Of a stretch of 64,000 bases of DNA, positions 19,218-59,085 are shown piece by piece; position 1 is the first letter of the stretch; each line of letters begins with the position of its first letter. The stretch is from Lytechinus pictus (taxonomy: Eukaryota). A model generated the notes under the pieces. It was given only the letters and a program-made list of their open reading frames with translations, made no database searches and was not told the DNA's origin. The stretch lies in NCBI RefSeq assembly GCF_037042905.1, contig NC_087251.1, forward strand, positions 23,810,001 to 23,874,000, written 5' to 3'. A program made the translations under genes and the position numbers.

Positions 19218-19307
19218 TCAGAAGTTTCCAGATTGCCGACGTGAAGAAAGGTTGTCGTGGCTTCCGACGCGACCACGAAGACTGAGTTGAATGGGTGCCG
19301 GTGATGA
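19218..19307 (-). CDS. KLC: Kinesin light chain, last coding exon (SSPAPIQLSLRGRVGSHDNLSSRRQSGNF*)
   Basis: Acceptor CCTACAG, phase 0, TGA at 19220-19218; matches the recalled sea urchin KLC C-terminus. Confidence 0.93.
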   Translation of the reverse strand, partial: SSPAPIQLSLRGRVGSHDNLSSRRQSGNF

Positions 19308-19932
19308 CTGTAGGTATATGATCAAGAAGAAAAATTGTGAAATTGAACATCATTTCATTCAGACAAAATTATCCAGAACTCCAGAATAAAAAAATGATTA
19401 TCTAGGGAGTGTTTCGAGTGTGTTTTATTTGACAGGAAAAACAGAGCTATGCTTCTTAGTCAATCAAAACAAGGGAATTGTTAGATCCAACAACATATCA
19501 GACAAAAAATGTTGATGAAACACTTTTGAGATTCAAACAAGATTTGATTTTTTAACATTCAGGGGCTCATGAAGTTAAGAGCAATTTGAATATGGCAACT
19601 CATATTACTCACTTAGTCATATTCAATTTATTACATCAAATACATTTTACACTACTACTACAAATCGGACGCATTCCAGAATGAATCAACATTGGCATGC
19701 CAAGCTTCGCGATCTGACGTGAGAGATGGTAAATCATGTAACAAATTATTTGTAGCCCTACATACGTAATCAACAAAATTTTAAATTTGATACACTTCAT
19801 TAGTACTAAGTACATCATTTACCATTTTTGGGATGAGATTTTTAGAAAAACTTCATTAAAAAAAATACAATTTTTTTTTTGCATTTCATATATCATTCAT
19901 TTATTGATAAAGTCATGCATAACTTGACTTAC

Positions 19933-19984
19933 CTCATCATTCCCTCTACTGGGTAGAACTGACATAGAACTAGCTCTTTTCATG
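19933..19984 (-). CDS. KLC: KLC exon (G-MKRASSMSVLPSRGNDE)
   Basis: Conserved MKRASS motif; acceptor TTTTTCCTCCCAG, donor GAG|GTAAGT; 52 nt, phase 2 to 0. Confidence 0.94.
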
Positions 19985-22900
19985 CTGGGAGGAAAAACGA
20001 AAAAAAAAATAATATTTAAAAAAATAAAGCACAAGAACAAATTAAATCACATAAAAATGCATATATTACTCAAATCTCAAGGTAACTTTATGTTTGTGAC
20101 AAGTATTATCCATTATGTACATCTGAAATTATTATAGACTATTAAATGAATACTCCTATTAAGATGATTAGGAAAAATAACCTTCCTTATTTTTACTCTA
20201 AATTTCAAATTTTGAAAACTTTTCATTGGGAATATCCCATAGAAATATCCATATGAAAAATATCCACCTAGGTGATAAAAGTAATTTCAGAAAAAAAAAT
20301 CATGACCTTTGTACATACATGTATACCTATCTGAATCAGGTTTAATCTGCCTATTAATTCTTATGTCGTTTTTTGTAGCTTTAGGGTGACTTTTTTTCAT
20401 AATAAGTAATATACAAAGAATGATACTAAAGACTTATGATACTGCAAAAGTGGTTATTTTTGTGGCAAAAAATATATTTTACTCTTGAAAACTTTTTTTT
20501 GCAGAAAATTTTCATTTCTTCAAATTTTTGAATCAGTTCTTATATGAATATTACAACTTCAGTGGTAGCCTATGTATATTCATGTTTGCAAATTGAAATT
20601 GTAAAAGTCTGCTTTCACAAACTATCAACCTGGTAGAAACCTGGTATGCTTTGTGTATTTCAATAAAGGGGTAATCTGAATTTAGAGGGCTACTATTCAG
20701 AGATTAATGAATATTGTAACATAGATTGGCCAGAATACAAAAGAGCAACACCTCAATTGTTTTCTATTGATATCTTACTCGCAACCCTGACACCACAAAT
20801 GTTTCAATAAATTGATGTTGAAGATGAATTTTTAATTCAAATTTTTTTCTGGCAAGAAAAACTGAGCTGAAACCTTCACGGATGCCTCGGCTGAGTAATT
20901 TAGATTTGTCACTGAACTGAGGATTATGTTAATGAATGTAACGCTAAAAGGCTTGCTTTTTCTGACTGACTGGTCAGCTCCACACACTTCATCCACTTTA
21001 CAGAAACATGGGATATTGGAATCTACACCTGTTGGCTTTCACATTAAGCTATTTAGTCATACACTATGTAGTGTTTGAGGTACAAGTATGATATTTATAT
21101 TGAATATTAAACCAGATAAGGAGTTGCTTCTTTCATATTCTGGTAAATTCGAATTGTTCTATTCAACAATCTGTGAATGTTAGCCCCCTAAATTTGGTTG
21201 ACCTTTATATGCACTGTAAATGTATATGAAATATATGATGCCCAGTATACTTTAAAGGAAATATAAAATAAACTATGAAAATGAATCAAGACTAAAATGT
21301 GTATATCATAAAATCCAGAACTAGACGCCTGATGTGATGGCACCGGAGCAACATTTTGAGATTATTTTTTTGTAAATATTATTGAAATATTCACCAAAGA
21401 TGGGGATTTTATCATGAAATCTATTTGTACAATGATGTATAAATCGTAATCTTGTGCAAGTAAAAAAAAAAATGTAAAAAAAAAATTGGGAGTTTACTCT
21501 TGTGAATACATGTATACATGTATCAATGATGAACTTGCTGTACACAAAACCAGAAAAAATGTAAAGTGTATGGCGCACCAAATTGGATGGGTTAGCATAA
21601 ATATGTGGGAATAAGCAATTGATCTGTTAAAATGTAAATATTATATGAGGATACAGATGTATATGGTTCCTAATTTCATTTGTAATGTGCATGATGAAAT
21701 AGATGACGTATTAATGAAAATATTCAAATGATGGACCGTGTGATAAGGAGATAGAGATTATGAAAGGATAACATTAATCCTTTCCTTCTTACAAAAAAAA
21801 ATACATCATACTGTAGGTATTTCTCTCACAATAATTTTAAAATAAAATGGAAAAACCCCTCTATTAAAATATACTGGACAATTTATTGATGGTTGGTTTG
21901 GAAAGAATTATAACAATATATTCATGAATCTAGATTGCAAATATTATCAACATATGCAACAGTCTAAAATTGTTTTACTTAATGAATTAACAAAAAATGA
22001 ATGAATGAGGTTAAGAACATATAGATACTAAAAAATAAAGGATTCCGTCAAAAAGGAAAAACGACTTCACATGTCATTACATCGTACATTTACATGTATA
22101 TAAAATACATGGTAAGCAAATAAGGCAATATAAAGGCATGAAAAGGGATATAATTTGTCGATAAGTACTATATCTCATGATAAATAATTTGTCAAGTCAT
22201 GAAATCATAATGGTGCATGCTATATAACATATGCATCAATAAGCCATACAGGGTTCATATCAGATTTATTGAAATGAATGTGCTATCTCTGGAATATCAA
22301 TCCCCCTCAAATTTTTAATCTAATTTTTAAGTACATGTGTATCTTTGTAGTGGTACTTCATCACCTATTAATCAAACCAACCTCATCACATCAAATATAA
22401 AAATCTTTAATCAAACTTTTTTAAAATCTCATCTGACATAATTTCCTTACGTTTATTCATATAGAACTATATATGTTCCTTTACCGTTCTTAAAGCTCTT
22501 CCTAAGAGCCATAGACACAATGCCATACAAGTTTGTTTTTTTCTAGAAAAATAACAGCCTAAGTTTTGTATTAAGCACTCACACTGCTGCATTTTTTTCT
22601 ACTCTATTTCAGCTTGATATTCGTAATTGGTTTTTAACAGTTAACATGCAAATCTGTTGTAAACCATTACAGACTGCAGAAAGATTATATATCATGTTTG
22701 CAATTGTGCTAATGGCAGTGCCACAAGACACGTCAAAGCAGTGATTACACAGCTTTTTGGGGCAGTGTTAACACACCAACAATAATCTGTCACTATAGAA
22801 TAAGGAATGGGAGGGATATTGGTTTCACTGGCAAAGAGTACAGTTGATCAGCTTTTTAATGGTTACCACAGTGCTTTGTTAATGTCTAATCTTTGATAAT

Positions 22901-23179
22901 AAGGATATGGCAACAAGTTAACAATAAATCTACTAAACGCATGTTCTCTATCATCGCTGGGACCATTTCTTGTACAAACAAAATATCACAATCAAAGTAA
23001 AATCACAAAATGCATCAATTGAAATGAGAAGAAAATACAAATATCGACAAGTTCACAAAATCCTCAAGGAAATTCTTCACAACCATGCGGGAACAAGACA
23101 TAAGACAAGGGTTCATGCACGGTGGAGTGGGGAAGAGATGCGTTGCACAGAGGTAGGCGAGTGTCTTACGTACATATAC

Positions 23180-57176: not shown

Positions 57177-57411
57177 CTGTAGACGAGGGCAAGAATGTTA
57201 AGCATAGTGGCTACATCTGGATGATCATGACCTGACGTTTTCTCGAGATCTTCTAAAGCCTGTTTACAGAGTGGTACAGCTACCTCATAGCGACTCTGTG
57301 AGGCATACTGTATAACTAGGTTGTGTAATGTACGTAGGCGGGCAGGAATCTCATATCCCCCTGCTGCTGCTGATACTGAACCACTGCCTGATTGTGGCTG
57401 GGGGTAACTCT
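57177..57411 (-). CDS. KLC: KLC exon, TPR1-2 ([36 protein letters not shown]...[12 protein letters not shown])
   Basis: [19 protein letters not shown] signature; TATAG acceptor, AG|GTCAGT donor; 235 nt, phase 1 to 2. Confidence 0.97.
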
Positions 57412-58779
57412 CTATAAATAGAGGAGGTATAATACGAATGTAGAATTAAAATGAGGCAACTATGCATGAAATAAGCATCTGATATAAGCAATATGTTATC
57501 CATAGGTATGTGTTCAAGATACCTTATGAATAAATAAGTTATGGTTTTTCAGTTTATCTTTTGATTACAAATCTTATCACAAGATCTACCATAGTTAACA
57601 CTGTTCATCTGCATAAATTACTATTAAGAAATGATACTTTAAGCTACAATCCTGATTGCATTTCATAAACAAAGTCCAGAAGTATTTCCACCAATAATTA
57701 AAATGTATAAACCTAAACAGACTTCACAGATTTCAATGAGAAAACACAAGTAATACATCCATGAACTGCTTTCTTTATGGAAGCCATTACAACAAAATCA
57801 AGGTGGGCCCTCCCTCTTGCCCATTCAATATTCATGGTTTTCCAGATGACATCCATTTCTCTTGAAAGATGGCACACACTATATGACAAGTTGATTGATG
57901 AGTACTCCTTCTCATACACCTGATGTGTTTTCATTACCATGGTAATCTGTTCACATGACCAAGATCATTTGATTGGTGTGTCTAATTTCATCTGATTTGG
58001 TCACAGCATATGTCACAAAAATATAAATTTGAAATAATTCACAAGCTGATATATTGGGGAACCAGATACTGTAAAACTTCTTGCAGGTATTCAGAATTTA
58101 GATAGTAACATGTTCTATGGGCAGTGGGAAGTTTGCTAGAATCATCAGTGTATGAGGCTACCATGTGCTAGAATATCTTAGAGATACTGTCCCTACAGAG
58201 ATCATGATTGTGTGATCATTGTTTTCTAGGAAACCAAGGTCTTAGGACATTAGGTGGTTTCAGAACGCCTCAAGTTCGTAAGTTCCAGGTATTTTCTGAT
58301 CAGGAAATTTACACCAATCAGAAAATACCAGGTAATATTGGCAATGTGAAAGCAAATTACGTGTATTCTCCCCGAAAGAAAATACTCACTAAATATTATG
58401 TACTTGTCAAAATTACGAGAACTTTCGCTGAGATTTTTCCAAGGTCACAAGTATTTTGGCAATGCAAAAGCAATTTACGGGAACTTTAAGCCCAGTGTAG
58501 ATGGGCGCGGGCGCCTTGGGTGGCTGATGAGCTAGTGATTTTGAATCTCATGCCTCACTTGCTTATCAGACTATACTGCGCATGCTCGTAACTTCAGGAA
58601 CTTATCCCGAAGGGTATGTTTCAGGGTGGTGTGAATGCAGGAATAATGGATATTTATTAGTCTAAAAAAGTCCTCGTAATTTAACGGGGATTCTTATGAT
58701 TGAGGCGGTTGTCTTTTGTACAGGCAGGAACAAACTAGTGACGGTAGAGAGGTCACCACAAGGAATATCATATGGAGCG

Positions 58780-58856
58780 CTAATCATCTCCAAGACTACA
58801 TTCAGAGGCACTCCCACAATAATGACAGTGGAATGCGTTTGCACGACCTTCATGTT
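58780..58856 (-). CDS. KLC: Candidate stop-containing KLC exon (E-HEGRANAFHCHYCGSASECSLGDD*)
   Basis: Very long pyrimidine tract (about 58905-58960) and several phase-1-compatible TAG acceptors, the last being TTCTTGGTTTCCTAG. Confidence 0.4.
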
Positions 58857-59015
58857 CTAGGAAACCAAGAACTAGGGACACTAACTCTAAACTAACATCA
58901 ACATCAATAAGGAAAGAGGGTAAGAGACAGAGATAGAGAAAGAGCATGTGGGGAAGGCAACTCAAAGAGACAATCCTACATGAGACAGTCAGTTAGTATT
59001 GCATTAAGATCTTAC

Positions 59016-59085
59016 CATCTGCTTGAGACCCATCATCATCTTCTGGGAAACCTAGATCTAAGGGATCTGACGATGTGTCCTCCGC
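59016..59085 (-). CDS. KLC: KLC acidic linker exon (AEDTSSDPLDLGFPEDDDGSQAD)
   Basis: LFP-like acidic motif; TGCAG acceptor, G|GTAAGA donor; 70 nt, phase 0 to 1. Confidence 0.94.

Follow-up and report, generated by a model that had tools for sequence, protein, structure and literature searches.

Isoforms of the kinesin light chain (KLC) in Strongylocentrotus purpuratus and in squid, the closest described systems to the gene considered here, are said to have been described in 1993 by Wedaman et al. and by Beushausen et al., respectively. The stretch analysed (the window) comprised 64,000 nucleotides (nt), positions 23810001-23874000 of contig NC_087251.1 of Lytechinus pictus, and contained on its minus strand a KLC gene in which one exon, coding for an amphipathic helix (AH), switches the reading frame of the tail. 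C-terminal splicing of KLC was reported in rat, squid and sea urchin from 1991-1993 onward (PMC2148443), and four sea urchin KLC cDNA isoforms have been known since 1993 (PMC8318374, PMC2148443). According to Anton et al. (2021; PMC8318374), sea urchin KLC1-3 carry the AH, which binds anionic membranes, as shown for mouse KLC1D/E, and aids lysosome transport. The same authors dated AH-plus/AH-minus splicing to the agnathan (lamprey) stem, did not detect the AH in the wider Ecdysozoa, and asked why short KLC exist.

The window gene resembled S. purpuratus KLC isoforms 1-4 (UniProt Q05090; P0050, P0132, P0037) in its inserts of 9 and 28 amino acids, its AH exon and its read-through tail. Three cDNA-based S. 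purpuratus records lacked the TK, KGF, SDIF and FxRSNG exons and the HEKS and FP tails, and later RefSeq models had them. In the squid Doryteuthis pealeii (UniProt P46825) one isoform carries the AH followed by MKRASS and the others skip to the shifted frame, as in the urchin, although the short tail has 14 residues in squid and four in the urchin. Vertebrate tails with and without the AH (KLC1 long forms D/E versus short forms A, B, C, F and G; KLC2/4) are also made by splicing, but the KLC1B/C tails were tied to a separate exon 14 (PMC8318374), whereas in the invertebrates studied here the short tail results from an exon skip plus a frameshift. In the described class of non-triplet splicing events (PMC13247117), a frame-changing exon makes the following exon terminate early; the KLC exon, of 119 nt and with premature termination in the other frame, agreed with that class of alternative C-terminal length, which was described for C. 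elegans and human, whereas the KLC case spans protostomes and deuterostomes. It fell outside the dual-coding class of the same paper (at least 60 nt read in both frames), with 15 nt in the urchin and at most 48 nt in mollusc pairs.

The AH exon (27417..27535, minus strand, as for all exons below) had 97.6% identity to S. purpuratus KLC-1, which is AH-bearing according to PMC8318374. Its moment in an 11-residue window was not significant, being reached by 26% of shuffles. Because 119 nt is not a multiple of three, the exon switches the phase from 0 to 2; all donors upstream of it (37957, 37930, 36458 and 35745) were in phase 0, and downstream donors were in phase 2. The 52-nt penultimate exon (19933..19984) is dual-frame, encoding MKRASSMSVLPSRGNDE (MKRASS...) in phase 2 and HEKS followed by a stop in phase 0. 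An optional exon beginning at 23234 is also dual-frame (FLRSNGIE... in phase 2, FP followed by a stop in phase 0), and its forms of 25, 55 and 61 nt restore phase 0. If the AH exon is skipped, phase 0 would be kept and the penultimate exon would terminate the protein after HEKS, and therefore the helix and all residues after it would be lost. Annotation was sampled in 42 echinoid isoform records, to which the largest echinoid cluster, with 44 members, contributed 15, about 29 others lying outside the sample, and conservation was assessed on protein records. AH-less isoforms ending in HEKS occurred in 3 of the 42 records (three species), and isoforms ending in FP in 3 of 42.

We hold it probable that the sea urchin has a single KLC gene, that of nine additional tail segments proposed for it four are real and annotated and five are likely due to chance, and that skipping of the 119-nt exon ends the protein four residues into the penultimate exon, in a form likely without direct membrane binding. 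No description of the frame switch was found in the literature on KLC splicing, frames, the helix and dual coding, in a search of main texts, and the main text of dual-coding papers, including PMC13247117 and 10.64898/2026.05.28.727796, did not name KLC. The switch is new to the literature searched and probably a very old member of the non-triplet splicing class, its function being proposed by analogy.

RNA evidence consisted of two contig sets and the raw reads of three runs from a single study, with about 10 reads per junction, and mapping covered the proposed segments other than 48081 and 58780. Inclusion of the AH exon was recorded as the joint 27535-37957 in 3, 4 and 1 reads and in a contig. 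At donor 36458, loose read ends in run X21 (3 reads, agreement 0.8) had as their consensus the 30 bases with which exon 19984 begins, from which it follows that the AH exon was skipped in RNA; the 36458-to-19984 join is also annotated, as isoform X15 of Lytechinus variegatus. Both the AH-plus and the AH-minus joins were thus present as RNA, the skip being thinly supported.

To assess the depth of the switch, long and short tails of the same species were compared as pairs, and the question was whether a single DNA sequence could yield both, the short tail being read in a frame displaced by one base. Shared-DNA encoding was possible in 25 of 25 pairs (18/18 plus a further 7/7) from echinoderms, hemichordates, molluscs, insects and a tick, and for tails of at least 10 residues it was matched by 0 of 2000 shuffles; for Capitella and Octopus the test included no long tail. 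The short tails read HEKS, HETS or NEKS in echinoderms, HEKSKFFIG... in hemichordates, (H/Y)EK(S/G)K... in molluscs, HEKSEL... in the annelid Capitella, HEARKF... in insects and NETC in the tick. In squid P46825 the short tail was present in isoforms 2 and 3 and the main entry, and the long tail in isoform 4. As mollusc and insect database isoforms show the same switch, it likely dates back to the origin of bilateral animals and was likely inherited from the protostome-deuterostome ancestor.

Several observations weigh against the explanation held probable above. The skip in this species was directly supported by at most 3 reads in one of the three runs of a single study, and joints at exon 19984 were absent among the joints listed in the first read mapping. 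The pairs were selected by tail pattern, tails of four residues were matched by about 4% of shuffles, and most of the cross-species isoforms are automated RefSeq models and not proteins. The short tail was absent among the amphioxus records listed (15 of 56 cluster members plus representatives), among the Lingula records listed (12/12) and in the few vertebrate records examined. The alternative-frame residues and the position of the stop vary (HEKS, HETS, NETC, HEARKF..., YEKGKL...), as expected of a by-product of the main frame. There was no support for selection on the short peptide, since its residues differ between phyla, and the conserved trait is therefore the truncation and not the peptide.

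That the peptide is conserved neither in sequence nor in length would also be expected if the frame-shifted short forms were splicing noise, with conserved phases giving the same tail after any accidental skip and annotation pipelines recording it. We consider this unlikely, although it is the alternative that fares best: the supporting reads in this species are few, and most human alternative frames were reported to lack clear selection in a 2026 preprint (10.64898/2026.05.28.727796), but three of the four squid isoforms named in UniProt, the main entry among them, have the short tail, which also recurs in assembled contigs without annotation and in the annotations of four phyla and was, in run X21, the majority partner at donor 36458.

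A role of the switch mainly in setting the KLC level through regulated unproductive splicing, with the transcripts subject to nonsense-mediated decay instead of yielding short proteins, is rather improbable. The HEKS stop lies 37 nt upstream of the last junction, which is less than the 50-55 nt of the decay rule, and the HEKS isoform is therefore predicted to escape decay. With further splicing of the FP form, about 100 nt would separate its stop from the last junction, and sea stars have a further downstream exon, both of which agree with decay. The FP exon may, however, itself be terminal, because one RNA contig stops at 22546 and an AATAAA lies about 90 nt further on, at 22457. In the contig set to which that contig belongs (X15), contigs were unspliced over 22546-25660, 29013-31079 and 31685-33963 and ended at A-rich runs; they may be alternative 3' untranslated regions (UTR), retained introns or internally primed pre-mRNA.

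In the truncation switch that we favour, the AH of the long forms would attach them to anionic membranes, by analogy with mouse KLC1D/E, and short forms would depend on TPR cargo adaptors. In-frame cassettes of 27, 84, 30 and 6 nt upstream and 42 nt downstream would vary the spacer around the helix; the KLC tail is likely disordered, and the cassettes likely tune the spacer. Tentatively, and at somewhat less than even odds in our judgement, a frame-switch exon toggling the membrane-binding tail of kinesin-1 has been kept for more than half a billion years in echinoderms, hemichordates, molluscs, annelids and arthropods, as a regulated choice between membrane and non-membrane cargo that is older than the vertebrate KLC paralogues and among the oldest non-triplet splicing events. 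The AH-minus skip in invertebrate records argues against the 2021 dating to a lamprey origin. If the switch is ancestral to bilaterians, both the lamprey-stem dating of AH-plus/AH-minus splicing and the loss of the AH in Ecdysozoa would be pushed back, and the sea urchin, a classic kinesin model with a single KLC, would offer a direct test in which one exon is blocked and membrane cargo is watched. Separately, isoforms of damselfly, cockroach, termite, lobster and tick (P0184, P0193, P0194, P0100 and cluster members) contained an AH-like stretch followed by MKRASS, in contrast to the lack of an AH reported for the wider Ecdysozoa in PMC8318374.

The original prediction, made from the letters of this stretch, had placed nine extra segments in the long introns of the gene, given by their low (3') ends on the minus strand, and had seen in them a possible hidden toolkit of swappable tails built by one gene. 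Four of them (23180, 26602, 35745 and 38769) were real exons. Since these were already in public echinoid RefSeq isoforms, the repertoire is real and not hidden; isoform labels reach at least X11 in L. pictus, X14 in S. purpuratus, X15 in Diadema antillarum and X17 in L. variegatus, in addition to the four cDNA isoforms of 1993. The part of the proposal that one gene builds many tails after TPR5, by combining short exons and alternative donors, stood, and the hidden, PDZ-ligand and TPR-less parts did not. The small-exon catalogue is ordinary and largely annotated. The key exons change frame, which had been missed.

Neural microexon programmes use neuron-enriched, frame-preserving exons of 3-27 nt. 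The 6-nt TK exon (38769..38774) fits the very short, frame-preserving type and occurred in 5 of the 42 records, all from L. variegatus; here it was skipped in 31 of 31 junction reads (0/31 included), as the joint 38132-39745 (9, 9 and 13 reads) had no letters in between. The core exon upstream of the tail cassettes (37957..38133) has a phase-0 donor, and an alternative donor extends it by 27 nt (37930..37956; VSIGVAWKG), with the joint 36541-37930 in 2, 3 and 7 reads. Inserts resembling VSIGVAWKG were found in hemichordate, amphioxus, mollusc and fish records. The tandem donors that had been proposed were borne out, 37957 and 37930 by reads and the three 232xx donors by annotation. The 84-nt basic cassette (36458..36541; 28 amino acids) was found in echinoid records only, and the 30-nt cassette KGFENAQLGK (35745..35774) in 7 of the 42 records, from four echinoid species. 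A short moderate-copy repeat with two-strand reads lay at 36907-37034, between the 84-nt exon and the alternative donors.

Downstream of the AH exon, the 42-nt cassette SDIFDGLMDMVKSG (26602..26643) was present in 20 of the 42 echinoid records and, beyond echinoids, in isoforms of sea cucumbers, sea stars and crinoids. It was predicted to form an acidic amphipathic helix (moment 0.65, matched by 0.1% of shuffles), in agreement with the amphipathic segment proposed earlier. The exon 23174..23234, in 4 of the 42 records, uses three donors (25, 55 and 61 nt; 3' ends 23210, 23180 and 23174) and reads F(L/R)RSNGIEVCRSLSVPVE(VY) after the AH exon and FP-stop without it; homologues occurred in Apostichopus and Asterias. 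The 14-3-3 mode I motif is RSxSxP. The exon contained RSLSVP in echinoids and Asterias and RSVSVP in Apostichopus, so that RSxSxP was kept across three classes, and the 14-3-3-like motif that had been pointed out thus lies in a real conserved exon as a putative site. At 23229, the window and the L. pictus records gave FLRSNG and other echinoids FRRSNG; contig set X15 had the base giving R, and the difference is probably a polymorphism.

The other five segments (24478, 30692, 32516, 48081 and 58780) were in 0 of the 42 echinoid records and had no homologue among 232 fetched KLC tails, and a search of the window with those tails for hidden homologous exons gave nothing better than E 0.09. Splice matrices were trained on 13 acceptors and 12 donors of core exons and are crude, because these sites are few and real exons scored as low as -2.0. 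The proposed terminal exons 24478..24556 (acceptor 11.7) and 32516..32548 (acceptor 10.7) had neither a record nor reads and are likely pseudo-exons. Zero raw depth in the bins holding them, in three runs, is weak evidence, because the real exons 26602 and 35745 also had zero depth in their bins. The 6-nt SK microexon (30692..30697; scores 7.4 and 7.7) is built like the TK exon and remains unconfirmed, 14 pattern matches in the Diadema N-terminus being false, and is the most plausible of the five. Class I PDZ ligands end in S/T-x-V/I/L followed by a stop. The proposed PDZ-ligand terminal exon (48081..48179) was rejected for its in-phase acceptors of -6.8 and -1.2, against 3.1-16.2 for core exons, and no expressed isoform with such an end was found in the records. 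The proposed TPR-less terminal exon (58780..58856) had an acceptor of 4.0, within background, and was unsupported.

An equal density on the antisense strand or in shuffled sequence had been set beforehand as refuting the prediction, and 50 shuffles were compared. In-phase cassette pseudo-exons at scores 3/4 numbered 18 in sense, 16 in antisense and 15.0 in shuffles, and at 5/4 they numbered 9, 6 and 7.6, so that look-alikes were equally common at ordinary scores, the refuting outcome, and phase fit alone, which had been taken as evidence, carries little weight. At 7/7 there was a weak sense excess (3 sense, 0 antisense, 0.66 in shuffles, with 3 of 50 shuffles reaching 3), and the three sense cassettes included the real TK exon and the unconfirmed 30697-30692. 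Terminal-type candidates showed a mild sense excess (145 versus 106 antisense and 126 in shuffles). The five segments are likely chance look-alikes. That all nine segments are used, so that rare cell types make PDZ-ligand and TPR-less tails and others absent from annotation, is very improbable, because even with four of nine real, 30697-30692 passing strict splice scores, strong acceptors at 24556 and 32545, about 29 echinoid records outside the sample and low RNA depth, the other five were without record or homologue, pseudo-exon density was near antisense and shuffled levels, and an RNA contig was unspliced through 24478, 30692 and 32516. Echinoid genomic DNA for intron conservation was sought among 596 metagenome pattern matches, and the one locus found was a GC-rich, bacterial-looking chance match. 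In the long post-TPR intron, a 603-bp element at 31081-31683 with 15-nt perfect terminal inverted repeats and very high two-strand read depth is a repeat resembling a miniature inverted-repeat transposable element (MITE).

The 13 core exons run from 63163 to 19218 and join as a single open frame, with identity at or near 100% to L. pictus RefSeq KLC records and exon-by-exon correspondence with S. purpuratus KLC-1. The locus encodes the N-terminal heptad region, the acidic LFP-type linker and the TPR domain of the KLC family, its first TPR exon had 95-100% identity to named KLC, and Pfam TPR_10 matched 6 stretches in record P0204. Elsewhere in the genome the only matches were three TPR matches of 41-50%, all on one other contig, and KLC is therefore single-copy. 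The first core exon in the window (62933..63163) covers the heptad-repeat region. The first coding exon lies about 13 kb beyond the window (contig positions 23886704-23886982) and was intact, with 97% identity to L. variegatus; because all L. pictus records examined begin at the second coding exon, their annotation looks N-terminally truncated. The acidic linker with its LGFP motif is at 59016..59085 and the TPR domain starts at 57177..57411, followed by the TPR exons 56633..56720, 54123..54224 and 51492..51575. The exon through TPR5 (49880..50122) gives, by read-through of its donor, the tail of S. purpuratus isoform KLC-4. The TPR1-5 block of 222 residues was invariant in 42 of 42 echinoid records, as had been foreseen from its lack of extra exons.

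The linker between TPR5 and TPR6 is encoded at 42097..42164 and TPR6 at 39746..39869; the upstream acceptor of the TPR6 exon was used in 11, 11 and 4 reads, and a form with a shorter acceptor occurred in 2 of the 42 records (Diadema). Ptychodera isoforms (P0025, P0152-P0165) had two versions of the TPR6 exon, which suggest mutually exclusive duplicated exons; no duplicate TPR6 exon was found in this window. The last coding exon (19218..19307) is followed by a long 3' UTR. Downstream of the KLC gene and in the same orientation, two exons of a menin gene (Pfam Menin, E ~1e-37) were located at window positions 8870-11630 on the minus strand.

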